A stretch of DNA of 63,618 nucleotides, counting the filler, from an uncultured Methanosarcinales archaeon (lineage in GTDB: Archaea; Nanobdellota; Nanobdellia; Woesearchaeales; JACPBV01): assembly GCA_964492935.1 (NCBI GenBank). It is 7 parts of 7 records of this genome, joined end to end, with 100 filler letters (N's around TTAATTAATTAA, not from the genome) between each part and the next. Parts side by side here need not be neighbours in the genome. Positions count along the whole stretch, not along the records: positions 1 to 12,334 come from CAZBLF010000033.1; 6 more parts are not named here. One strand, given 5' to 3'. The stretch's first letter is position 1. The number at the start of each line of letters is the position of its first letter. Below, in pieces: positions 184-36,876 of this stretch. A model generated the notes under the pieces. The model was not told the DNA's origin. It ran no database searches and was given only the letters and a program-made list of their open reading frames with translations. Made by a program: the position numbers and the translations under genes.

Positions 184-276
184 AGTGGTAGAGGCTGATG
201 GCGGTTATTTAAATTATTGGGTTTGTGATTTGGATTCATCGTGAATTTTATAAGTCGGGGCGGATTCGCTGATGTT

Positions 277-1137
277 ATGCTTCGCGTTACCGATCTTTCT
301 TCTTACCAGTACTGTGCTCGTAAATTGTATTTGGAGCGTGTTTTAGGGTTAAGGGAGCCGTATAAGCCTGCTTTAGCCAAGGGTTCTGTTCGGCATGAGA
401 CATACGAGGCGGTGGTGTTGCAGGAGGAGCTTATTGTTTCTCAGATTTCTGAGGGATTTACGCTGGCAGATGTTCAGTCGCTGTATCGGAAGGCGTGCAG
501 GGATTGTTTGCAGAAAAAGGTTGAAAGCTACAAGAGTAGGCTTGCGAAATTTGGCGTGGATGGTGAGGAGCTGTTCGTGAAGACGCTTCCTTTAGTTATT
601 GTAGAATTTGATGAACGTGCTGCGGTCGTTTATGGTTTTATGGAGCGACATGAAGTATATGGCAAGGAGTTGTGGAAGAGACTCACTCCAAAAATTCAGA
701 CCGAGATTAGGGTGGAGTCCACTTCATTGGGGATTCGAGGTATTGTGGATCAGATTGAGGTGTACGAACAGGGATATGTTCCGGTGGAATTGAAAACGGG
801 TAAGATGCCGAAGGAGGGTGTGTGGCCGGGACATGAGATTCAGATTGCTACGTATGCATTGTTGTTGCAGGAGAAGTTTCAGACAACGATTAAGGAAGGA
901 TTTGTAAAATATCTGGATACCAACGAACGAAGACACCTTGCTTTTAATCCGTTCACGCATGACGAGGTGCGAGCGTTGATTACTACAGTTACTTCGCTTC
1001 TCGATAGCTGGGAGGTTCCTGATTTTGTTGAAAATCGTAATAAATGTAGTGGTTGTGGACTGAAACAAGAGTGTTATAATCCACTCAAAATTCAGGCTCT
1101 ACTGACGGAAAAGCGCCCTAGTACCACTCAAGAATAA
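277..1137 (+). CDS. cas4: Solo Cas4-like PD-(D/E)XK nuclease with Fe-S cluster cysteines
   Basis: N-terminal YQYCARKLYL, RecB-like GIVD..ELKTG, QIATYALL and C-terminal KCSGCGLKQEC. Likely ATG at 277, after a TTTTATAA box. Confidence 0.85.
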   Translation: MLRVTDLSSYQYCARKLYLERVLGLREPYKPALAKGSVRHETYEAVVLQEELIVSQISEGFTLADVQSLYRKACRDCLQKKVESYKSRLAKFGVDGEELFVKTLPLVIVEFDERAAVVYGFMERHEVYGKELWKRLTPKIQTEIRVESTSLGIRGIVDQIEVYEQGYVPVELKTGKMPKEGVWPGHEIQIATYALLLQEKFQTTIKEGFVKYLDTNERRHLAFNPFTHDEVRALITTVTSLLDSWEVPDFVENRNKCSGCGLKQECYNPLKIQALLTEKRPSTTQE

Positions 1138-1212
1138 AAAACAAAACCTTTATATATTACTGCAGGTACCATTACTATACCATTATACGAATTTGTATCT
1201 GGGGGAATTTAC

Positions 1213-1476
1213 ATGGCAGACGATCATAAGACTTTTTCAAAGGATTTAATTGGCAAGACCGTTGTTTCAAAAACGGGAAAGCGTTTCGGTGAGGTAGGAG
1301 ATCTTATTTTCGAAAGTCGGTCTGGAGAACTTATTCACATCATCATTAAGAGTCCCACTTCTTACACTCAGAAATTAGAGCTTGAAAAGGATAAGGAAGG
1401 TAACATTTTGATTCCTTTTTCAGCTGTCATTGCGATGGGCGACTTCTTGGTTATTGCTGAAGAAGATATTATCTAA
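1213..1476 (+). CDS. Single PRC-barrel domain protein (CdpB-like candidate cell-division factor)
   Basis: 87 aa with the PRC-barrel pattern LIGKTVVSKTGKRFGEVGDLIFE...IPFSAVIAMGDFLVI. Confidence 0.85.
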   Translation: MADDHKTFSKDLIGKTVVSKTGKRFGEVGDLIFESRSGELIHIIIKSPTSYTQKLELEKDKEGNILIPFSAVIAMGDFLVIAEEDII

Positions 1477-2470: not shown

Positions 2471-3499
2471 TCACACTAGGATATCTTCTGGAATTCCTGC
2501 CCCTGCCCCTGCAGCAATACTAACTCCTTCTTCGATATTAATTTTCTTTTCTATTATGTGGGTGTAGCCATATCTTAACACTACTGTTACGGGCGTTTCG
2601 ATAGCTTGATGGTTGGGATTGATTTCCGTTTTCAGAAATTCACAAAAACTAACACCTTTTCCATCGATCATTTTAATGATCACTGGCCTACATACTTTGG
2701 CTTCTGCTGCACCAACTCTAAACTCTGCGAGAAAAACATTATTTAGCTCACTGAGTCTATATCCATCTTTAAATGGATTAGTCTCCAATGCGATAGAAGG
2801 GTCCACAATCTTACCTGATCCTTTGTTCTCTAAGAAAATTCGATACAAAACCTTTCCATCATTTCCACCTACTACATCTTGTTCGATGCTTGTAACTGCG
2901 ATGGGTGCCCCCTGATCGCTTAACGATATTGATTCGGTAAATTTGCAAGGCTTTTCCAACTGTCGTGTGCTCTGCGGATTTGGATCATAACAAATCGGGA
3001 CGGATGCAGTGGTTGCATACGTAAATCCAGTTGCGAATTTTATCGTAGGAGAGTATCTGGAAACTCCATCTGGTACGTTTATTGGATCTATTTCCAGGAT
3101 GAATGGTTTATAGCCCCCCTCGGAATTGTACACACTCCTGCCTTCTAATACTAAATCTGTTGCGCCATCTATCTCCAACATGTCGATCGATATTTCGCTG
3201 CTCTTGTGTTTAATAGTAAGTAGGTTTTGGTCGTAGCCTCCTGCCCAAACAGAGGCTCTCAATCGGCCTATTTCGCTGCTTTGAGGAAATGCGCCTCTAT
3301 TGTGGATTTCAAGGATCATTTCTTCTGCACCTGATCCTTCAATGAATTTAGTAGGTGTTGTAGCAGGTAGATTCAATTCTAGGCCCTGTGCTCCTGTCCT
3401 AAAGGAGGTATCATCGCTATTTGAGGAAGGAGTACTGCTACCGCAGCCCGCTACCAGGAGAAGAGTTACTATTAATGCTACTGAATGGGTGGCCTTCAT
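2471..3499 (-). CDS. Uncharacterised lipoprotein, paralog 4 of the surface cluster
   Basis: Lipobox LVAGC. Motifs FRTGAQGL, NRGAFPQ, CYDPNP..EKPC, SDQGAPIAVT, NKGSG and YGY are shared with neighbours. Confidence 0.8.
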   Translation of the reverse strand: MKATHSVALIVTLLLVAGCGSSTPSSNSDDTSFRTGAQGLELNLPATTPTKFIEGSGAEEMILEIHNRGAFPQSSEIGRLRASVWAGGYDQNLLTIKHKSSEISIDMLEIDGATDLVLEGRSVYNSEGGYKPFILEIDPINVPDGVSRYSPTIKFATGFTYATTASVPICYDPNPQSTRQLEKPCKFTESISLSDQGAPIAVTSIEQDVVGGNDGKVLYRIFLENKGSGKIVDPSIALETNPFKDGYRLSELNNVFLAEFRVGAAEAKVCRPVIIKMIDGKGVSFCEFLKTEINPNHQAIETPVTVVLRYGYTHIIEKKINIEEGVSIAAGAGAGIPEDILV

Positions 3500-3537
3500 T
3501 GTTTTTTGTGTATATTAAAAATAAAAAAGAACGCCAG

Positions 3538-4506
3538 TTAGGGCGTTGTGTGTTTCACCAAGATGCGCTGAGACTTGTGTTCTTTGTACTCGAACTCACC
3601 TTTAATAGTTACTTTCTTTTCGAAGTCGATGTTGTTTGCTACTGCATCTGATACATCTTGTGAACAGCGGATGAATCTTTTTCCACCGAATAAAGTGGTG
3701 AATCCAGCTTGGTAGCCATCAGCTTCTGTGTCTGCAGGTCCATCGGTGATTCCGGAACATTTTAGTCCAGCAAGTCCGGAGGAGATGTTCAGGAAGACTT
3801 TGTCTTCGTTCGACTGAATGTCTGCTTCATCACAGCTTGTTCCTAATTTGGAGACTGAACCGGTACCTCGATGTACTACATCAAAGTTAAAGTTAATGCG
3901 GTCGGTTCCACCAATGTTCTCTACAAAGTTTTCGATCTGCAAGGGAGAGGCTGAGCTTTCCACTCTTTTATTCTCGTCAACTTCGCAGACTTTTTCTTCG
4001 TCGTCAGTTTCTGTTACATCGGATATGACACAGATATCTGTCTGAGCGGTAAATCCATATTTGTAGCAGAGTTCTGCTCGAATGGTGAATTCGTTGTTTG
4101 CTGGTAGCGCTGCTCCGAAGTTAAATCCTTCAAAGGTCAGGAAGGTGATTCCTCCAGGCACTTGGTTACCATCTGAGTCGATAAATGTTTTCTCAAGATC
4201 GTCTTCTGTGTTTCTCGAATTCACGGGACTTCCGAAGTCTGCGGGGAAAAATCCTTGTAACGTCACATTTAGATTTTCCTTGGGCACATCGTATTCTCCT
4301 TCATTTTCGATATTTAGAGTCACTTCGAATGGGAAATTTCCCTGATCAAAGACCTCTTCGGGTGGTGCGCCTTCGACGAAGTCGAATGTCAACGCATCGG
4401 TCCCCCCTACGAATGATTTTGGGCTACTTATTGTTTCTCCGCCATCGCTACATGCTACTGCTAGCATTGAAAGTGCGACAAGGAGTGCTACTGTTTTTTG
4501 GTTCAT
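3538..4506 (-). CDS. Uncharacterised lipoprotein, paralog 3 of the surface cluster
   Basis: Lipobox LAVAC. Motifs FVGGTDALTFDF..PPEEV, LCYKY..TDICV..EKVC, SSASPLQI, HRGTG. Confidence 0.8.
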   Translation of the reverse strand: MNQKTVALLVALSMLAVACSDGGETISSPKSFVGGTDALTFDFVEGAPPEEVFDQGNFPFEVTLNIENEGEYDVPKENLNVTLQGFFPADFGSPVNSRNTEDDLEKTFIDSDGNQVPGGITFLTFEGFNFGAALPANNEFTIRAELCYKYGFTAQTDICVISDVTETDDEEKVCEVDENKRVESSASPLQIENFVENIGGTDRINFNFDVVHRGTGSVSKLGTSCDEADIQSNEDKVFLNISSGLAGLKCSGITDGPADTEADGYQAGFTTLFGGKRFIRCSQDVSDAVANNIDFEKKVTIKGEFEYKEHKSQRILVKHTTP

Positions 4507-5534
4507 GGTTCCACCTCTTCTTTGGGACTACTAAATTCTATTTCTGGTAGAAACTCGATTTGAGCTTCTACACTCTCAAAATAACTGTACTCTAAATTAA
4601 TTTCTAATGGAGCTTCAAATGTTCGCTGGATGTTGCTGCCTTTAGAAATTCTACAGAAAATGGTTGCTTCTTCGTCGATAAGTCTGAGCTTGTTATCTAC
4701 TGCTGGACGGCATTCGGACATGATTAATGTTCCTAATCGTACTTCCCCGACTCTAATCTTGTCGAGGTCGCTTTGTGAGAATCCTTCACTAAAGGGATCG
4801 AAATCTAAACCGAAATCTACAAAGTCGGGATCGATGACTCGTCCTATTCCTACATTTCTTACAAAAATCTTGTAGATGATGTCATCTTTAGTTACTGATT
4901 GTTCAACTCTTGTTACTGCAACGGGAGCTCCCTGTGTTGATAGGCCGAGAGATTCGGTAAAGTCACAGGTTTTTTCTCGAGCATTCGTGGTACGAGGGTT
5001 AGGATCTACGCAGAGGGATGGGCTCGCTATGGTTTTGTATTGGTAGAGCATGCTTGCTTTGATGTGTGGTCTGTATGAAGATACGCCTTCAGATAGTCGA
5101 CCTCCGTCAAGTGATTCAATTCTGAGATCTATTGCTTTGAAGCCGCCTTGAGCGTCATAGGGGCTTTTGCCTTCTAATTCACGATCTTGATCTCCACCAA
5201 ATCGGATAGGGTCGCTTAATACATCAAACGAGTCATCATTTGATATCCTTACGAGATTAGGGTCGTAGCCGCCGAAATAGATGAATCCTTTGCTTTCGGT
5301 TCTTTCATCTGCCTGTGGAAATGCGCCTCGATTACGAAGTTCTAGGATAATATCGACTTCTTCACCCTCTACGAGCGTATCGGGAAGGTTTTCTTGGAAT
5401 CTGAGTTCATATCCGAGACTGCCCGTACGGAAATTTATCGCATCGGGGTCCTGATCCGCTACATTTTGGCCGCTACAGGCGGATAGAATGAATAGGGTAA
5501 GCAGTAAAAAAGCGATGTTTCTTGTTTTTATCAT
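4503..5534 (-). CDS. Uncharacterised lipoprotein, paralog 2 of the surface cluster
   Basis: Lipobox LSAC. Motifs FRTGSLGY, NRGAFPQ, YQYKT..CVDPNP..EKTC, STQGAPVAVT, NVGIG. Confidence 0.8.
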   Translation of the reverse strand: MIKTRNIAFLLLTLFILSACSGQNVADQDPDAINFRTGSLGYELRFQENLPDTLVEGEEVDIILELRNRGAFPQADERTESKGFIYFGGYDPNLVRISNDDSFDVLSDPIRFGGDQDRELEGKSPYDAQGGFKAIDLRIESLDGGRLSEGVSSYRPHIKASMLYQYKTIASPSLCVDPNPRTTNAREKTCDFTESLGLSTQGAPVAVTRVEQSVTKDDIIYKIFVRNVGIGRVIDPDFVDFGLDFDPFSEGFSQSDLDKIRVGEVRLGTLIMSECRPAVDNKLRLIDEEATIFCRISKGSNIQRTFEAPLEINLEYSYFESVEAQIEFLPEIEFSSPKEEVEP

Positions 5535-5622
5535 GGTATCTCTGTATTTCTCATTTCTGTGTTTTGTATTTTATAAACTTTTCGATACGGGAACTGAGTT
5601 ACTGTCGGGAAGGAGATTCTTA

Positions 5623-6759
5623 CTAGGGAAGTCTTCTTACTCTCTTAATATTGATTTCTTCTGTTTGGGTGTCGAAGTATCCGTATTCCACCTCTATCAG
5701 TAAGGGGGTTTCATAGGTGCCTATCTCTTGGGATATTTCCTCTGCCTCACAAATAATTATCGTTTGTTGGGAGTCTCTATCCAGATGTGCCTCTATTTCG
5801 GTTTTTTGACTCCCTCTAGCACCGCATTTGAGGGGGTTCGATCTGTCTCCTCCAAGAAATGCCCTAAACGTAATGTTATTGAGGTCTTCGGTCTTTCTTA
5901 ATGTGTTAAAGGAGCATGCCCTATGAAGAGATGCAGGGGCCACCACTTTTCCAGAACCTACATTTCTTACTGTGAATTCGAAACGAGGCACCGTTTTATG
6001 CACTTGTACCGGAAGCATATCGGTTTTCATGTGCGTTACTGCGACAGGCGCTCCCTGGGTAGAAAAATCTTGGTCAAGAATGACCTCGCAGGTTTTTTCT
6101 TTCTCTTGCAAATTAAATAAGTCGGGATCGACGCAGACATCGGTGGCTATTTGTGTTTTGTATGGGTAACAAAGTCCAGCTGTAATTTGTGTCTTTACTC
6201 CTGGAATCTCTGGGTTGAGCACATTAATCCCACGAGCCTGTGCTTCGAAAATAAGCAAGCGCTCCTCTCCCTTGGTGACCGATGTTGTCCCTGCAGGCCC
6301 AGGAAGCGTATTTCTTCCTAAGAGATACATTGCAAATGCAGGATTTCCTGCTTTATCTGGTTTGTCTCCTTCCTTGGTGATGTATCGAATGGTGTCCGCC
6401 AGGTCATCATTTTGTGCCTCTGCATTTATTTCTTTCATTTTAGCATCCCAGGGAATACCAATCACTTGGTTGTCCCACGAAAGTGCAAAGAGCGCTTTTC
6501 CTTCTCGAATACACCGGTTGGGATTGGTTCCGGAGTTTACTGGTAGTAGGTCACATGCCCCTAGGTTCTGGATTTTGAAAGCTAGGGGGAGTGATTGTAA
6601 TTCCCACACTTCGCTAGCAGGAGTATTTCTGTAGAATTCAAATACTACTCCTTCGCTCCCTTCTATTGTGGTTTTTTTTGGAGCTATTTCCTTTGCTTTA
6701 TCACATCCTGCCACTAGGAGTAGTAGGAGCAGTATTAGGGCTATTCTTTTGGTTGTCAT
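5623..6759 (-). CDS. Uncharacterised lipoprotein, paralog 1 of the surface cluster
   Basis: Lipobox LVAGC. Motifs GSEGVVFEF, LCYPYKT..CVDPD..EKTC, STQGAPVAVT, NVGSG, YGY. Confidence 0.8.
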   Translation of the reverse strand: MTTKRIALILLLLLLVAGCDKAKEIAPKKTTIEGSEGVVFEFYRNTPASEVWELQSLPLAFKIQNLGACDLLPVNSGTNPNRCIREGKALFALSWDNQVIGIPWDAKMKEINAEAQNDDLADTIRYITKEGDKPDKAGNPAFAMYLLGRNTLPGPAGTTSVTKGEERLLIFEAQARGINVLNPEIPGVKTQITAGLCYPYKTQIATDVCVDPDLFNLQEKEKTCEVILDQDFSTQGAPVAVTHMKTDMLPVQVHKTVPRFEFTVRNVGSGKVVAPASLHRACSFNTLRKTEDLNNITFRAFLGGDRSNPLKCGARGSQKTEIEAHLDRDSQQTIIICEAEEISQEIGTYETPLLIEVEYGYFDTQTEEINIKRVRRLP

Positions 6760-8690
6760 GTCGTTGTTTCTTTATCGACCTTCTCGGTTTCTGCTAATTC
6801 TTCTTTTGGTACGGATGCGTCTATTTTTACATAGGTGAGGATTTGTTTTTCAACTCGGAAATCATATCTTACGTCTGCTTCAATTTGACGAGTGACCGAT
6901 CTCCCCGTTCCTAGTTGTGCAGTGGCATCTTCAGCGGAAATAGAGATAGGACATCTCCAGGAGACGTGGTTGATAATGGGTGTTTTAATAGCATCTGTTC
7001 CTCTGTTTTTGTCCCCTTCAACGAGCTTATATATATTTCTGCCTAGCCCAAATTCTTCATTAGTAGTCCTAACAAAAAGGAATTCTCCCCCGCATAATTC
7101 TCCATTTCTTTCATCCATGATGAACCCACCTGGTAGAGTTATCTCTAGACTATGTATTTTTGATATTTCTCCCGGCCAGTACCGCTCGACCGTGAATCCC
7201 GCAAAGGTTTTTGTTTTCTCTCCCGGAACAAGATTGAGCGACACGGGATCTACATTGGTTCCAATTCCTAACTTTACGGGGCCGCTTGAAGGAATAGCGA
7301 CTGGTCTTCTTTCAGAAATTCCTGCTATTATCAGAGGATCTTTTCCCTCGGACCGACTAGCACGAATGAATTCCTCATCCATAAGGTGGGTGGTGAGCGT
7401 ACTGATCGTTTCGAAATTGAAGGCTGCACTCACTTTTACGGTACTACTTCCTGACTTAAGCCCATCTGATCCCCTTCCTGCGTCAAAACCACATTCGAAG
7501 TATATTTGTTCCTTTTCCTTGAGCACTTTTCCGACTTGTTCTACGCTTACTCCTCCATCACCCAACTTTCTAGCGATATTCGATGGACTAATTGTGCCAT
7601 GGGCTATGCCTCCTTTGTCGTTTATCCCACTACATTCCATCGACACTCGAACCTCCCTTTTGTTATCTCCTAGTTCTAATTTTCTTCCAAAAAGATCTCC
7701 CCAGAATAGGGGAGCTTGTTCTGCATTAAATTGAGGTCGTTGTGCCGCAAGGTTTTCAATATACACTCCGAGGCGATTGTTGGGATCTTCATTCGGAGGG
7801 TTTTTTGACCGATAGTATCCTCCGCTTGCCTCATCTATCCCTGCAGTTACTCCCCCTCTAATTGATCCTATGCTGGTAAAAAAGAGGGCTTTGACGTTAT
7901 CATATGCTGTACCTACTCCCTCCATCGCTTCAAGCCTCTGTTGAGCGGTATCGAACTGGACTGCATTTGTTGCTAGGATGGGAAAGATAATCGCGTTAGC
8001 GACCATAAAGAGATTAAACATGAGCAGAAGCCATAAGCCTGTCCCGGCCTTTTTCTCATAGTCGCTCATAAAGTAGAAACTTCCATAGAGCCAGAGGGGA
8101 ACTACAATTCTATTCGAAAAGAGTTGTAAGACCGGACTTAATTCGGCGAAATAGTCCAGTAATCCATATCCGATGAAGTCGAAGAGAAGATAATAGATGG
8201 CTATCTCTCGAGCTTGTCGAAAGTTCATTACTTTTTCTAGGACTAGGAAATTAAAGGCAAATGCCATGAGCATGTGGGCGAAGCCAGCGGCACTGTAGAA
8301 TCCGCCGGAAAAGCCTATAAATAATACTGCTAGGACCGCTGCACCTACACGGGGAAATGATTTAATAAATGGAATGTCTGGAGAGTATTTTCTGAAGACC
8401 GCCCAGACAATCATGATACTCCAGAATTGAATTCCCCACACCATTCGTATTAGGGGATTCGCTGCTATATCGCCACCACCAATAATTCCGAAGGTGATAT
8501 TTCTCAACAGTACTTCGATACGCAGGCCATTGAACCCCGTTACATAATCCAGGAGCATGAGCATCATTGCGAGGCCGACTGCACCCCACCCTAACATGCC
8601 TGGGCCGTTTCCTACGGGGCCAGCATCTACTTGTGTTGAAGTAGAGGTACGTGTTCGATTCGCGAGTCGATTAAAATTAAAGGTAGTCAT
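6756..8690 (-). CDS. Polytopic membrane protein with a large C-terminal beta-rich (probably extracellular) domain
   Basis: About 6-7 hydrophobic segments in the first ~240 aa. The C-terminal domain has paired Cys and SSGPVKLGI / VRYDF motifs that resemble the lipoprotein paralogs. Confidence 0.7.
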   Translation of the reverse strand: MTTFNFNRLANRTRTSTSTQVDAGPVGNGPGMLGWGAVGLAMMLMLLDYVTGFNGLRIEVLLRNITFGIIGGGDIAANPLIRMVWGIQFWSIMIVWAVFRKYSPDIPFIKSFPRVGAAVLAVLFIGFSGGFYSAAGFAHMLMAFAFNFLVLEKVMNFRQAREIAIYYLLFDFIGYGLLDYFAELSPVLQLFSNRIVVPLWLYGSFYFMSDYEKKAGTGLWLLLMFNLFMVANAIIFPILATNAVQFDTAQQRLEAMEGVGTAYDNVKALFFTSIGSIRGGVTAGIDEASGGYYRSKNPPNEDPNNRLGVYIENLAAQRPQFNAEQAPLFWGDLFGRKLELGDNKREVRVSMECSGINDKGGIAHGTISPSNIARKLGDGGVSVEQVGKVLKEKEQIYFECGFDAGRGSDGLKSGSSTVKVSAAFNFETISTLTTHLMDEEFIRASRSEGKDPLIIAGISERRPVAIPSSGPVKLGIGTNVDPVSLNLVPGEKTKTFAGFTVERYWPGEISKIHSLEITLPGGFIMDERNGELCGGEFLFVRTTNEEFGLGRNIYKLVEGDKNRGTDAIKTPIINHVSWRCPISISAEDATAQLGTGRSVTRQIEADVRYDFRVEKQILTYVKIDASVPKEELAETEKVDKETTT

Positions 8691-8714
8691 TACACGCCTC
8701 TTGTATTAAGAATA

Positions 8715-9914
8715 TTAGTCATCATCCTGCTCACGCAATTCTACTATGACTTCAACAATATGGAGAATGCTGTCAGGGATAATTTTGATGAAGTTGTTAT
8801 CTTCTTCAACGAATGAGTCAATATTGCGCTCAAATACTTTTTTGGTTTGGTCGATGCGAATGAATTTGTCGTTAATGTTGAGGTCTGCTTTCTTTCGTTT
8901 GGTGTCGTCCACGAATTCTACAATGATGTATGCATCGTAGGTGTTATTGCTGATGTCGTCGAAGGTGCTTTCGTTGACTTCGAAAAAGAGTACATGTTCA
9001 GGGGTGTCGATTTCTGTGAAGAACATTTTTACCTGTTCAATTGCATAATTACCGCGTTCGGTTTTGAAAAGAACTTGGTTTTGGCCTGCTCGTAATGCTG
9101 ATACGGGTACTGCAACCTCGTAGCGGTCTGCGCATAATGGTACGGCTCCGAAAATATTTCTTCCATTGATGCTGACGTCTAGGATTCCTACATCGGCTTC
9201 AGATGCACAATATGGAATGAATCTGATTTCGGATTTTTCGATGTTCCTTAATTCGGTATCGGTTAGCGTAAAGGTGTTGCGTCCTTCCTGGCGGGTGTGA
9301 TCGGAGATGTCTCCAATGATTTGGATGGTGTTTAAGGAGTATTCATTGGTTGCCCAGAATCTTGCTCCTACCGATGAAACGCTAAAGGTTATTTCGTTGT
9401 CTTTTTTCAACAATTCTTTCCTGAGTTTAATGGGTTCTGCATTGATTGCAGGTACACGGTATTCGAAAATAGCGTTTCCATTGAGCCAGATGGTGAGGAC
9501 ACCTTTTCTAATGGGTGCCTGGAAATTGAGGATGATGTTGTCTGCATTTTCTAGGTCGTTGATTCTAAACGTGGTTTGTCTTGATTTTTTTACGAACCAG
9601 CTGTTTTGAACGGTAAACGGAGTAATGGTATCCAGCACTTTCGCATTGGTTGTTTCGAAGATGTTGATGTTCGGTAAATCAAGGTCACGCACATTATCGA
9701 CGGGATCTAAGGTTCCTACGTCTTCTTTGAGGAGTTCGACTAACTCTTGGTTTGATGATCCGGAAGAGGAACTTGAAATGGATTTTCCATCGAGTAAATC
9801 ATCTCGATCATCTTGTGGAAGAAACAGGATGTAGGTTATGAGAAATGCAGCCAAGATTGCTACTAATAATGCTGCGTTTGCCCCGCCTTGTGCTCTTTTT
9901 GTTACAATTGCCAT
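8715..9914 (-). CDS. Class III (type IV pilin-like) signal peptide protein with repeated beta-sandwich domains
   Basis: N-terminus KRAQ-GGANAALLVAILAAFLITYILFLP. Internally repeated segments: LTIWLNG..NEITF, LDVSING..NQVLF, ADLNIND..NFIKI. Confidence 0.65.
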   Translation of the reverse strand: MAIVTKRAQGGANAALLVAILAAFLITYILFLPQDDRDDLLDGKSISSSSSGSSNQELVELLKEDVGTLDPVDNVRDLDLPNINIFETTNAKVLDTITPFTVQNSWFVKKSRQTTFRINDLENADNIILNFQAPIRKGVLTIWLNGNAIFEYRVPAINAEPIKLRKELLKKDNEITFSVSSVGARFWATNEYSLNTIQIIGDISDHTRQEGRNTFTLTDTELRNIEKSEIRFIPYCASEADVGILDVSINGRNIFGAVPLCADRYEVAVPVSALRAGQNQVLFKTERGNYAIEQVKMFFTEIDTPEHVLFFEVNESTFDDISNNTYDAYIIVEFVDDTKRKKADLNINDKFIRIDQTKKVFERNIDSFVEEDNNFIKIIPDSILHIVEVIVELREQDDD

Positions 9915-9981
9915 TTTAGCGTATACACTATTACTCCTACTTTGACAATCTTTATATATAAATCTTCTCTTTCTTTGAGTT

Positions 9982-10997: not shown

Positions 10998-11097
10998 NNN
11001 NNNNNNNNNNNNNNNNNNNNNNNNNNNNNNNNNNNNNNNNNNNNNNNNNNNNNNNNNNNNNNNNNNNNNNNNNNNNNNNNNNNNNNNNNNNNNNNNN

Positions 11098-19644: not shown

Positions 19645-22600
19645 TTATGCGGTAGCGGGTTGTGAAGTATTCGTATCTACTTCATTAGAAGGGGTATTTA
19701 TTACTTGTTGTTCTTCTCTCTGGGAGGTGTAGTATGGCACTTCATTTGTAGCGTTTCCGTCCCAGTTTACTTTCCAAACGATGATTCTGCCGCCAGTGAA
19801 ACTTGTTCTATCAGAGAATTTTTCGAAGTAGCTCGTGCCATGACCATTCATGTAGTAGAGTTTCGTAAAGAGTGCATTTGCGAGTTTTGGGTGTGCAATG
19901 ACTGCTCTGTAGCGGGAATCAGAGGTGGGGTAGAGTGTTAGGCTGATTCCGAGTTCGTTTTCATCATACTGTATGGTATCGATGGTACCATCTTCGCGTG
20001 CGATACTGATGCTGTTTGGAAACCTTGGGCCTTGAGGGGTGTTGACGCCAGCAGTTTGGAGTGTTGAGAGGTTAATATTCAGGCCGACTCCTTCTTGAAT
20101 GCTGCATGAGACGACTCCTCCCCCCTGATTTGAGCAGATGGATTCTCCTTGGTATGAGGGCCAGGGTGCAATCCACCTATTTGCCTCGGCGCTATCGGTG
20201 ATTGCCTGGATTTCGAAATAGGTATCTTCTGCTTGTTTTTGAGACATGTTGAATCGTTCTACCAGGTATGCACTGCTTGCTACAGGATCATTCTTGTATT
20301 CCTTTTTCTTGAGGGTGTTGTAGCGTAGAGCGCGCTCGAAATTCCAGGATCCGAAGTGAGCCCAGACGCCTCCTTTTCCGATCATATCGTGTGAGGTGAT
20401 AAAGTAATTTTCTGGAGGTGTGCAGTGTGAGTATTTCAAGACTTCATCGATTTGGGTGATGCCTGCATTCTCTAGGACTTTTGCTGCTTCAGCCTTATCT
20501 GTAAGTAGGATAATTTCTTTTACCACTTTGAGTGCATTTGGAATATCTTCAATTTCTTTATTAACGGTATCGAATGCCTTGTTTTGTCCACAGTCAAGCA
20601 TTCTGAGTGTGCCGCGAGCATAGTTTTCATCGTCGGTTAGTAGAACCGATCCAATCCAATGTGCGTTTGGAGTGTTTTGAGAGGTTCCATCGAAGGTGAC
20701 AGGTCTATTTCCAATCATTTTGAACCAATGGCCGAAGTCCCACCATGAATTAATGATTGCATTTTCATCTGCCTGAAGGTCAATCTGTTTTAGGGAGTCG
20801 TACCATGCATCATTCATTGAGGGTATTTCTTGACGGGAAACACTTTTTGCCCCTTGGATGGGTTGTCCAAAGAGGACTAGTAATAGGAAGATAACGACTA
20901 CTGCATTCACAAGATGTTTATTGAGGTGTAATCCTTTAGTCAGGAGTTCTGAGCTTTTTTTGTAGATGAAATTGACTGCTACTCCGGTGGCAAGAGCGAA
21001 TGCAGGTACTGCAACGAGTGTAAATCTGACTCCTTTAGTGCTTGCATACACGGTGGATGCGAACCAGAGTGTTAAAAGGAGTGATGCTTTGATGTCGATT
21101 CCTTTCTGCCGGGTTCGGATGATGTCGAAGAGCCAGAATGCGACTGGGACACCGGTTAGGATAATGAACATGATCTTTTGTGGCATGATTGCTAATAACA
21201 GGGCATACCAGATGGCTGATCCGATTGCAAGGTAGATCCCTCTTTTTGAGTGGCTTGTCTTTTTTAAGAGGCTCCAGGCTAATCCGGACAGGGCGATGAG
21301 GAACAGGAGTTTACTTCCCATCCCAATTTGGTTGATGACGCTGCTTAATGAGGCAGTATTTTGTTCGGCCACCGTGGTAAAGACATTGGGCCAGATGCTA
21401 TCGATGCCGACTTCCTTTAGTGTGATAAATGCTCTTGGTCCGATGAGGAATCCATCCATGAAGTTGCTGAATCCTGTGAAAAAAGAGGTGAAGATTGCTG
21501 AGAAGATGAGGAAGAGTCCTAGTGTGATTGGAGTTTCAAGAAATTCTTTATCTTTGATGAAGGAATCTATATTCTTGAGTTGATCGCGGTGCAGTAATAT
21601 GTAGTAGCCGATATATGCTACTGATGTAATGATGATGAAATTCATGATGTACCACCAGCCGCCCCACGCAAAGCTGAAGAGTCCTACGAAGAAGCCTGCT
21701 GCGAGTGTGTAGAGGATTATTTTCTTGTATTCTTTCGTTTCAAAGGCTTCTAGGAAGAGCCAGGTTACGATTAACGGTATGAGTACGTTGTACGCATCGG
21801 TATCGGCAAATCCGCCGGCAGTTCTTGTTAGTAATGCAGGATGAATTGCGAGAATCATCGCGGCAATGAATCCACCGAAATTTCCGGAGATGCGTCGTCC
21901 TATAAAGAAAATAGGGATGATGCTGAGTGCTATTAATAGGACGGGAGTGTAGAAGGCGGCCGTCATCAAGCCTATATCTTTATTGAAGAAGCGCATGAAT
22001 TTGAACAGAAATGCTTCGAAATAGGCATGGAATGCGTCTCGTGGAACGAATCGTCCTACGGGTGCGAACATGAATGTATCATAGGGAGCTTCTTTTCCTT
22101 GTTTATTTCTGAGTTCATCTCCTGGATGTCCGTTGTCAATGACGTTTTTTGCATGACGCATCCAAAAGTAAGGGTCAATAGCTAAGAGATAGGTCTGGCC
22201 GTTCTCATCCTGTAATCGAGATCTGAAATGATTGGCTGTTGCCTGTACTTGCGCTTCCAGTTGTGCTTTCTGTTCCTTCTGGAATTTTTCGAATTCGGTA
22301 TTGATGAGATTGTTCTTGTTGCTCTGCGGTAGATTAGGATACTGTTGATTAATTTGTGATTTAATTTGATCTTGGACTTGGTTGTAGACTGAGTCGCGGG
22401 CCCAGGTGTCTGCGATGGGCAGTTCTGCTGATGTTGAACGTAAACTTGAACTCATGAATACTGGGATGAGGATTAGTAGTAAGGCTAATAGTACCGTTTT
22501 ATGCGCAACTACGAAGCCGGTTATTTTTTTGGTGTCCACTCCGTCTTCATCGTCTTTTTCTTGTGAAAAGACTCCCTTTATTGATGATTTTATTTTTGAA

Positions 22601-23022
22601 AAGTCGAATGAGATTTCTTCGTCTTCTTTTTCGTCATCGGAGGCATCTTCTTTGTTTGAATGGTGTTCTCCAGGTTCTTCTGATTTCTTTGAGCTGAAGA
22701 TGTTCTTTATTTTTGAGAGGTCTAGGTTAATTTCTTCATCGTCCTCTTCATCAGTTTCTTCCCTTGAAGATTGTTCTTCTGCTATCTCATCCTTTTTTTC
22801 AGGTTCTTTTACTTCCTTCTGGATGTCAGGTTCGTGATGAGGTTCTGGTGAGTGGTGGGACTTTTCTTCTGAGGGTGCATCGGATGGTGTTTTTGGCTGA
22901 GTATTTTCTTCTTTGGTTTCTTCAGCTGGTTTTTCTTCTTTTGGTTTTTCTTTTTTACCGGAGAAGATATTCTTTATCTTAGAAAAATCAATGTTTATTT
23001 CGTCGTCTTCGTGTTCTTCCAT
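19645..23022 (-). CDS. aglB: Oligosaccharyltransferase AglB/STT3 with an acidic, repetitive N-terminal extension
   Basis: IDPYFW, RTAGGFADTD, TVAEQ, many TM helices and the WWDFGH motif. Confidence 0.93.
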   Translation of the reverse strand: MEEHEDDEINIDFSKIKNIFSGKKEKPKEEKPAEETKEENTQPKTPSDAPSEEKSHHSPEPHHEPDIQKEVKEPEKKDEIAEEQSSREETDEEDDEEINLDLSKIKNIFSSKKSEEPGEHHSNKEDASDDEKEDEEISFDFSKIKSSIKGVFSQEKDDEDGVDTKKITGFVVAHKTVLLALLLILIPVFMSSSLRSTSAELPIADTWARDSVYNQVQDQIKSQINQQYPNLPQSNKNNLINTEFEKFQKEQKAQLEAQVQATANHFRSRLQDENGQTYLLAIDPYFWMRHAKNVIDNGHPGDELRNKQGKEAPYDTFMFAPVGRFVPRDAFHAYFEAFLFKFMRFFNKDIGLMTAAFYTPVLLIALSIIPIFFIGRRISGNFGGFIAAMILAIHPALLTRTAGGFADTDAYNVLIPLIVTWLFLEAFETKEYKKIILYTLAAGFFVGLFSFAWGGWWYIMNFIIITSVAYIGYYILLHRDQLKNIDSFIKDKEFLETPITLGLFLIFSAIFTSFFTGFSNFMDGFLIGPRAFITLKEVGIDSIWPNVFTTVAEQNTASLSSVINQIGMGSKLLFLIALSGLAWSLLKKTSHSKRGIYLAIGSAIWYALLLAIMPQKIMFIILTGVPVAFWLFDIIRTRQKGIDIKASLLLTLWFASTVYASTKGVRFTLVAVPAFALATGVAVNFIYKKSSELLTKGLHLNKHLVNAVVVIFLLLVLFGQPIQGAKSVSRQEIPSMNDAWYDSLKQIDLQADENAIINSWWDFGHWFKMIGNRPVTFDGTSQNTPNAHWIGSVLLTDDENYARGTLRMLDCGQNKAFDTVNKEIEDIPNALKVVKEIILLTDKAEAAKVLENAGITQIDEVLKYSHCTPPENYFITSHDMIGKGGVWAHFGSWNFERALRYNTLKKKEYKNDPVASSAYLVERFNMSQKQAEDTYFEIQAITDSAEANRWIAPWPSYQGESICSNQGGGVVSCSIQEGVGLNINLSTLQTAGVNTPQGPRFPNSISIAREDGTIDTIQYDENELGISLTLYPTSDSRYRAVIAHPKLANALFTKLYYMNGHGTSYFEKFSDRTSFTGGRIIVWKVNWDGNATNEVPYYTSQREEQQVINTPSNEVDTNTSQPATA

Positions 23023-35896: not shown

Positions 35897-36229
35897 TTAA
35901 CCAGCAAACAGACTCACTGCCAACAGCGTCAGAATAAAAGCAATCACATACTGCAAAATCCACACTAAAATAGCCTTTCCCGTGGTCAATTTAAAAGCAA
36001 CCCGATACACCAGAGACGTAGCCAGCAACGAAGCAATACTCGCATACAAGCCCAAATACGTCAATGCAGCCAGCGAAAAGGCCGACAACAAAATACTCAG
36101 CAAGATAACTTTCATCAAACTAGCCTCGCCACCCACCAATTTAACGGCAAAATACAACGGCAACAAAGAAATCACCAAGGCTCCGCCCAAGAACAACAAA
36201 TTCCCTGTCAACAAATCTATTCCAACCAT
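35897..36229 (-). CDS. Small four-TM membrane protein
   Basis: 110 aa, almost entirely hydrophobic. Confidence 0.7.
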   Translation of the reverse strand: MVGIDLLTGNLLFLGGALVISLLPLYFAVKLVGGEASLMKVILLSILLSAFSLAALTYLGLYASIASLLATSLVYRVAFKLTTGKAILVWILQYVIAFILTLLAVSLFAG

Positions 36230-36876
36230 TTTTTCTCCAGAGCTAATAACACTCCACCTAATACTATAAAAAAGTTTGCACCCAGCAAAAACGTCTTCAT
36301 AATAGCAGTCCCCATATCAACAAAAAACGTCTGAGGATACAGTAAGATCAGATTACTAGACGAAGAAAACTGCCATGTCCCATCAGCAAAAAATAACCCA
36401 TGGAAAGCCGTAAACAATCCATCAAACCAAAACACAATCCCCGAAATAACCAAGAGCGCAAAAACCAAGTTAATAACGCCAGCATACAACAACAGCCGCC
36501 GAAGAACAACCAATCTATGAACACCAAACACCCAATACCCAGAAAAAAGCACCAAGAAGAACACAACACCACTCAACATAAACATTATCCGACCCACCGA
36601 AACAACAGCACGAACATCAGAAAGATGACTCACCTCGTCAGCAGTAAACACATCAACCAATAACTCATCTCCAGAACCAGAAACATACGCAACAACCGCA
36701 TCATTCACCAACGAAGCTGAAAATGCAGTCTTTTCCTCAACCGAATACTGAGCAAAATCATAATGCGCATCAGAAAAAGCATTCCCAAAAAAGCTAACAC
36801 CCAAAAGCAAAAAGAACGACGAAACAACAAACAACACACCAAGTAACCAACCAATCTTCATAAGAACAAGAATCAC
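36217..36876 (-). CDS. DUF1461 / TIGR01906-like integral membrane protein
   Basis: EVSHLSDVR, FDGLFTAFHGLFF..WQF, LILLYPQTFF. Confidence 0.8.
   Translation of the reverse strand: MILVLMKIGWLLGVLFVVSSFFLLLGVSFFGNAFSDAHYDFAQYSVEEKTAFSASLVNDAVVAYVSGSGDELLVDVFTADEVSHLSDVRAVVSVGRIMFMLSGVVFFLVLFSGYWVFGVHRLVVLRRLLLYAGVINLVFALLVISGIVFWFDGLFTAFHGLFFADGTWQFSSSSNLILLYPQTFFVDMGTAIMKTFLLGANFFIVLGGVLLALEKKWLE

Follow-up and report, generated by a model that had tools for sequence, protein, structure and literature searches.

The six-gene locus analyzed here bears on how Woesearchaeota make contact with other cells and on whether some of them feed on bacteria. The genes, g1 to g6, lie on the first contig (positions 1-12334, to which the cluster is confined) of a 63,618-nucleotide window, the whole stretch of DNA analyzed, which is a string of contigs from a 1.15-megabase, 84.8% complete genome of the order Woesearchaeales (GCA_964492935.1). 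They encode a pilin-like protein (g1), a polytopic membrane protein (g2), and four proteins with a lipobox or a near match to one (g3-g6). We conclude that these genes represent a lineage-wide, previously undescribed surface operon, with a core that contains no member of a known family. Comparison with relatives points strongly toward bacterial cell walls, through the peptidoglycan-hydrolase domains found at the C-terminus of many g2 orthologs.

An earlier note on this DNA had proposed an uncharacterized surface cluster of DPANN archaea, and the searches agree. All six proteins stay below the Pfam and NCBIfam cut-offs; when solved structures were searched with profiles of the lipoproteins, g1, and the g2 ectodomain, nothing fell below E 0.3; no S-layer family was matched for g1-g6 by either approach; and the named relatives are hypothetical proteins of Woesearchaeota or Nanoarchaeota. 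No description of the operon was found in a literature search that covered few subscription papers, although the families may be present as anonymous clusters in the supplement of PMC8204110.

Conservation and predicted folds of the operon proteins

The four lipobox proteins are paralogs (g4 and g6 share 36% identity, E 3e-68; g3 and g4, 25%, E 8e-19; g3 and g5, 22%, E 1e-12), and a tree built from 289 lipoproteins resolves three clades (99, 79, and 111 members; support 0.82, 0.91, and 0.95) that track gene position, with g3 falling in subfamily A, g4 in B, g5 in C, and g6 in B as a second copy. The three old clades reject recent amplification of a single lipoprotein. Thus, the proposal of old and distinct subunits stands with respect to age and position, but the subunits number three, not four, g6 being a second B. 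Motifs of the form Y.Y.T..C..EK.C, N/H.G.G, and a terminal Y.Y are present in all of g3-g6, as had been noted, whereas the QGAPVAVT-type motif and a strict lipobox are limited to g3, g4, and g6; g5 carries SSASPLQIE instead and, with Ala at lipobox position -3, is only a near match. Across the family, the lipobox is strict in 211 and relaxed in 283 of the 289 members, lipidation being a prediction from sequence; available passages of PMC12462473 support the existence of lipoproteins in DPANN archaea.

The g2 ectodomain, judged by profile comparison, belongs to the same family. Its profile matches that of the lipoproteins with a probability of 87.9% (E 3.3e-6, whereas control comparisons with g1 gave 0.3% and 1.2%) and that of subfamily A with a probability of 74% over 244 aligned columns. 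The suspected kinship between the outer domain of g2 and the lipoproteins is therefore significant at the profile level, though not by BLASTP, where the best E value is 0.02. By BLASTP, g1 matches none of g3-g6.

We sampled 150 other genomes of the phylum, evenly drawn, and recovered loci from 138 of them, anchored on g4 or g1 matches. g1 was matched in 142 of the 150 genomes, nearly always as a single copy, and g4 in 131. With the locus under study included, g1, g2, and at least one lipoprotein occur together in 113 of 139 loci, and g1 alone in 15, several of which are at contig ends. The order g1-g2-A-B-C is kept across relatives: the lipoproteins run ABC in 66 of 117 loci and ABBC in 3, with ABCB in the locus under study, and g2 overlaps the next lipoprotein gene by exactly 4 nucleotides in 51 of 116. 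Some loci deviate from this pattern, with A alone in 17 of the 117 (split or truncated), a pair of C-like genes in 15 (lying for the most part outside the order), and a recurrent break between A and B (e.g., L029 and L120). Beyond this sample, the lipoprotein profile matches 4,053 representatives, of which 150 are listed, and a search with a profile built from 12 divergent lipoproteins yielded 5 proteins, of which those with names come from Nanoarchaeota or unclassified archaea. Class-wide, the g2 ectodomain profile was found in 159 of 301 genomes, with matches in only 1 of 56, 1 of 31, and 0 of 14 genomes of three families, a missing match being no proof of absence; in four genomes from such families, HMM (hidden Markov model) searches matched neither g1 nor the lipoproteins. 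Many records titled 'uncultured Methanosarcinales archaeon' (e.g., L198, L199, and L213) carry the operon in a Woesearchaeota gene context; these titles are probably wrong, and we make no claim that the operon has spread to Euryarchaeota.

The N-terminus of g1, KRAQ-G followed by a hydrophobic helix (one transmembrane helix, residues 12-30), resembles those of other pilin-like open reading frames (ORFs) of the same genome on contig C17, and [KR][GA]Q precedes the hydrophobic helix in 81 of 127 scored orthologs. The elements of the class III signal previously assigned to g1 (basic residue, Gly/Ala cleavage site, hydrophobic helix) are thus in place, but the strict FlaFind pattern is missed through a Gly at +2. 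One of the pilin-like proteins on contig C17 (L277:2220-3299) joins a KRGQ signal to an N-acetylmuramoyl-L-alanine amidase domain (Amidase_3) above the Pfam cut-off, with metal ligands that appear intact; its gene lies in a row of roughly a dozen genes for pilin-like proteins, including one for a 1,385-residue protein without a Pfam match. These signals, together with a prepilin peptidase and a T2SSE ATPase in the genome, would suit an accessory module of a type IV pilus, with g1 as a minor or tip pilin, g2 and the lipoproteins as an envelope guide or portal, and the hydrolase clearing the path, as happens in other envelope machines. However, both pilus genes lie outside the operon locus, g1 misses the strict pattern, and the four genomes without g1 or lipoprotein matches all have T2SSE ATPases (three of them also a prepilin peptidase), so that pili there do without the operon; we consider the accessory role unlikely.

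The remainder of g1, in which repeated beta domains had been noticed, was modeled with AlphaFold2 from 69 sequences (predicted local distance difference test score [pLDDT] 88.9; predicted template modeling score [pTM] 0.52) as three nested jelly rolls, 88-204 inside 73-304 inside 57-395, so that the protein is predicted to be a membrane-anchored rod. The best fold match is PNGase F (Z 11.4; root-mean-square deviation [rmsd] 2.8 over 110 aligned residues), and many domains of the carbohydrate-binding module (CBM) type match as well. g1 may bind glycans, a reading kept conditional because a shared fold shows no function. About 20 orthologs of 545-600 residues (L101, L129, L143, L148, L193, and others) carry a Cys-rich insert of about 150 residues at the same site in the membrane-proximal domain. 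Likewise, some subfamily A lipoproteins extend into long tails of Cys-rich repeats, which reach about 900 residues and match no Pfam family (L038:6811-10419, L138:4031-6760, and L083:4991-7030, among others), which are possibly adhesin modules. Among 39 proteins with such inserts or tails, 38 had no family above the Pfam cut-off.

The model of g4, which drew on 150 sequences (pLDDT 92.9; pTM 0.88), is almost entirely beta, with two long strands at 138-151 and 287-306. Because the fold matches cover either both chain ends or residues 142-301, the model suggests two nested immunoglobulin-like (Ig-like) sandwiches, with both termini in the same domain, and the lipoproteins are accordingly predicted to be rigid two-domain rods. 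The best match is the pilin EcpA (Z 7.3; rmsd 3.5; 136 aligned), in a Z range that the search tool calls common; none of 48,161 chains reached Z 8, and SbsC (Z 5.8; rmsd 3.4; 94 aligned) shows a generic Ig-like likeness. Foldseek comparison of g4 with the Protein Data Bank and viral models gave template modeling scores of only about 0.2. In the ESM Atlas, high scores were confined to clusters from Woesearchaeota/Nanobdellota, whereas TraQ, NEW3/CARDB, and DUF7383 fell below the bar of the tool, the match of g4 to Bacteroides TraQ being partial (template modeling score 0.30 normalized by query and 0.62 by target). An ABC substrate-binding lipoprotein is rejected, given the almost all-beta model, the lack of a Pfam or NCBIfam match, and the lack of ABC genes in the operon.

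An analogy with type V pili had also been drawn, in which lipoprotein precursors would be cleaved and polymerized by strand exchange, with g2 as the anchor and g1 as the tip. The lipobox, the two beta-sandwich domains, the C-terminal strand 287-306 crossing both domains in the model, and a donor-strand-complemented pilin as the best, albeit common-range, match would be in keeping with such a fiber, although the g4 model has nested Ig-like sandwiches where type V pilins have a double transthyretin-like sandwich of N- and C-terminal domains. Under the criteria for type V pili taken from passages of PMC13655056, the analogy is not supported: there is no type V pilin among the top 50 fold matches of g4, and no conserved basic residue follows the first strand in the 150-sequence lipoprotein consensus, an Arg before the first Gly motif being present only in part of subfamily B and not in C. 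Furthermore, the fixed one-of-each content of A, B, and C suggests a defined complex, not a shaft, and a hydrolase carried by the anchor would end up at the base of the fiber. Such a fiber strikes us as highly improbable.

The C-terminal slot of g2 and a candidate contact complex

In the phylum-wide set, 30 of 120 g2 orthologs extend at least 55 residues past the ectodomain, and 15 of the 120 carry a peptidoglycan hydrolase above the Pfam cut-off: nine SLT, two GH73 glucosaminidase, two M23, one M15, and one NlpC/P60 domain. A second set, drawn from closer, named relatives, comprised 80 loci (76 without 4 duplicates; 64 with g2, 56 complete, 55 tails scanned), and here, 24 of the 64 g2 orthologs carry such a tail: 19 SLT, 4 GH73, and 1 phage tail lysozyme, with 6 further SLT domains below the cut-off. 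The catalytic Glu is kept in all 28 SLT tails above the cut-off for PF01464 in both sets. An HMM built from these tails matches 40 of 188 g2 proteins but only one of 440 lipoproteins and none of the remaining 1,796 ORFs at the loci. An SLT tail is also found on one A lipoprotein. In a tree of g1 and g2 from 116 genomes, the tails are scattered, large clades are tail-free, and sister lineages carry different enzymes (SLT and M23, or GH73 and SLT); because the deep nodes are weak, the order of gain and loss cannot be set. Taken together, these sequence comparisons identify the g2 C-terminus as a swappable slot, with wall hydrolysis as optional cargo, and they lend real support to the host-contact role envisaged in the earlier note.

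The reading that we favor, and that we would put halfway between doubt and acceptance, is that the operon proteins form one membrane-tethered surface contact complex, in which the g2 tail, where present, cuts the bacterial wall. Five kinds of exported, membrane-tethered proteins would assemble into this complex. The g2 ectodomain, A, B, and C would pack as a pseudo-symmetric Ig-like hetero-oligomer held by lipid anchors and the g2 transmembrane bundle, with g2-A and B-C as sub-modules; g1 would be a stalk that binds surface glycans of the partner cell; and the hydrolase tail, in many relatives, would open the bacterial wall at the contact site. Because the tail comes after a strand leading back to the anchored domain, enzyme action would take place near the archaeal surface, at a contact pad and not at a pilus tip. 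In the organism studied here, the complex would work without the enzyme, and wall cutting could instead come from the pilin-like amidase encoded on contig C17. What we infer in this scheme is the assembly, the binding, the catalysis, and the contact with a host. Covariation between the proteins in 73 paired genomes yielded no outliers, but neither did the within-protein control, so that this result is uninformative.

Several observations weigh against a wall-cutting contact complex. The g2 of the studied genome ends with its ectodomain, with no tail, no SLT domain, and no Pfam match, and no SLT, M23, or GH73 domain was found in that genome at its 84.8% completeness. The counts from the SLT-tail HMM are biased toward g2, the model having been made from g2 tails; the sampled genomes are related to one another, and a g1 motif served to choose the second set. 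Other g2 tails are FN3, crystallin, Cys-rich, or without an assigned family. Inspected by eye, the M23 tail of L077 appears to lack the first metal-binding motif and the NlpC/P60 tail of L140 its Cys, so that both look catalytically degenerate. SLT domains occur in 79 of the 150 phylum genomes, yet just 10 of these have one within the operon, and in family f4, the operon is present in all 16 genomes and SLT in none. From this pattern, it follows that the core function is something other than wall cutting and that hydrolases have been grafted onto many surface proteins.

The same pattern suits a general envelope scaffold (an S-layer anchor or a shape or division structure) that serves the lineages as a display site for enzymes and adhesins. 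The operon is near-universal, single copy, and kept in lineages without SLT; it has housekeeping neighbors, the RFC small subunit gene being present in 63 of 70 ABC-type loci and, in the second set, pelota in 72 of 80; and archaeal envelopes commonly contain Ig-like and jelly-roll folds, as passages of 10.1101/2023.10.27.564410 indicate. Nevertheless, the three families nearly or wholly without g2 ectodomain matches imply that related cells live without the operon, the cargo of the slot is mostly wall-lytic and sits on g2 far more than on its neighbors, and an S-layer family match was not found in the searches described above. We regard a scaffold of this kind as quite unlikely.

The membrane part of g2 is poorly conserved, with 1 to 9 predicted transmembrane segments across orthologs and most often 5. 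In one very divergent operon (L185:5605-11781), g2 has a single segment and bears an RGQ pilin-like signal at its own N-terminus. The composition of the operon might also be read as a scavenging or uptake complex that digests wall debris or captures DNA or polymers of dead bacteria and feeds them to the g2 membrane domain without contacting a living host: the jelly rolls of g1 are CBM-like, hydrolase tails suit debris digestion, and glycan-capture layouts resembling the operon combine lipoproteins with a polytopic protein. Yet, the variable membrane part is unlike a transporter, and the operon includes no ATPase, permease, or nuclease, leaving this role, in our view, decidedly improbable.

Returning to the contact complex, a bolder version, which we put forward tentatively and consider doubtful, would make the operon the central machinery with which Woesearchaeales and allied orders dock on hosts and breach walls. 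It would be a novel type of archaeal envelope apparatus, composed of a single Ig-like family plus a triple jelly-roll anchor, with an exchangeable hydrolase tail enabling parasitism or predation on bacteria. If so, the type of g2 tail would predict which lineages have bacterial hosts. An operon that is near-universal and single copy, and in which unrelated families of peptidoglycan hydrolases have occupied one slot time and again, is a concrete, expressible target: it lends itself to enzyme assays and antibody-based imaging, and it can serve as a marker when lineages are chosen for co-culture.

Coordinates, neighbors, and assembly of the locus

Table 1. Features of the g1-g6 locus, in window positions
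Feature	Position	Strand	Length	Description
g1	8715..9914	-	399 aa	Pilin-like anchor, class III-like N-terminus
g2	6756..8690	-	644 aa	Polytopic membrane protein, C-terminal ectodomain ~290-625
g3	5623..6759	-	378 aa	Lipobox protein, subfamily A
g4	4503..5534	-	343 aa	Lipobox protein, subfamily B
g5	3538..4506	-	322 aa	Lipobox-like protein, subfamily C
g6	2471..3499	-	342 aa	Lipobox protein, extra subfamily B copy
Hairpin and T-run at g5 end	3520..3547	-		Weak: 13 such sites vs 7.3 expected
g1/pelota divergent-start gap	9915..9981	.	67 bp	AT-rich stretch TTTATATATAA

The ORFs confirm the six co-oriented genes of the earlier note and its two 4-nucleotide overlaps, g2/g3 and g4/g5. g6 is located past the point where the operon usually ends, and the hairpin at the end of g5 is possibly an old operon end that predates the addition of g6. 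In the gap between g1 and pelota, TTTATATATAA resembles an archaeal TATA element; a promoter scan made with a bacterial model gave 11 sites where 14.3 are expected.

An assembly artefact is rejected, given that contigs from four other runs (four studies) cover the locus at 95-100% identity without an indel or a joint, one contig from another run spanning 2900-7028. At least half of the sequence words of the locus were recovered in 11 runs from 10 studies (two possible sources excluded), all of them marine, seawater, or vent metagenomes; no RNA data set is among the listed runs that share these words. A link between the operon and the rest of the window is likewise rejected, the remaining parts being other contigs.

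Beyond the RFC small subunit gene, positions 241-1476 (+) encode a solo Cas4/PD-(D/E)XK nuclease and a single PRC-barrel protein, as in many relatives; a division role suggested by the PRC-barrel neighbor is rejected, the gene being on the opposite strand and nothing further supporting it. A 100-N gap at 10998-11097 truncates pelota and fuses its ORF in frame to an acetyl-CoA-synthetase-like ORF, which reflects an assembly gap, not a fusion gene. Elsewhere in the window, positions 36217-36876 (-), on another contig, encode a member of the Lit family (lipoprotein intramolecular transacylase, PF07314) above the cut-off, a lipoprotein-modifying enzyme of bacterial type, and positions 19645-23022 (-) encode an unusually long (1,125 residues) oligosaccharyltransferase AglB/STT3.

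Comparison with known systems

The operon resembles the type V pili of Bacteroidia (Fim/Mfa) in its set of paralogous lipobox proteins, for which two beta-sandwich domains and a lengthy C-terminal strand are predicted; it differs from them in its nested domain layout, in the presence of a polytopic paralog and a pilin-signal protein, and in its archaeal host. With archaeal type IV minor pilins and other class III signal proteins, g1 shares the basic-Gly/Ala-Gln signal and helix, and the genome encodes a prepilin peptidase and an ATPase. Unlike the minor pilins, however, g1 has a body of three jelly rolls and lies in a locus without pilus genes, and genomes with a pilus ATPase exist without the operon. 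BcsB of cellulose synthase is similarly membrane-anchored, with jelly-roll CBM-like domains (Z 11.0 to g1), but the likeness is at the domain level only (rmsd 18.8 over 204 aligned residues), and the operon has neither flavodoxin-like domains nor a synthase.

Several envelope machines include a dedicated wall hydrolase, such as VirB1/PrgK in type IV secretion systems, EssH in type VII secretion systems, and the lysins of phage tails. As in these machines, a wall-lytic domain is tied here to a putative membrane complex, and hydrolase families are interchanged; in contrast to them, no ATPase, channel, or tube component was found in the operon, and neither sequences nor folds match theirs, the partial likeness of g4 to TraQ being the only hint.

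According to PMC11291902, every DPANN archaeon in culture lives with an archaeal host, and the passages of 10.1101/2023.10.27.564410 and PMC11329633 that concern surface proteins and nanotubes likewise deal with cultured DPANN archaea on archaeal hosts. For Woesearchaeota and Nanoarchaeota, murein hydrolases with suggested bacterial targets have been described (PMC8204110, PMC9723730, and PMC12352652), in passages that mention no operon or scaffold. Among known systems, the hydrolases in the pertinent passages of PMC8204110 and PMC9723730 share with the operon the same lineages, the placement of SLT/GH23 on exported proteins, and a proposed role in attack on, or attachment to, bacterial walls. 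Whereas those passages of PMC8204110 describe single proteins of up to 3,000 residues, the enzyme here forms an optional tail of a single subunit encoded by a conserved operon of five genes, in which five further hydrolase families occupy the same g2 slot while most SLT genes of the phylum lie elsewhere.

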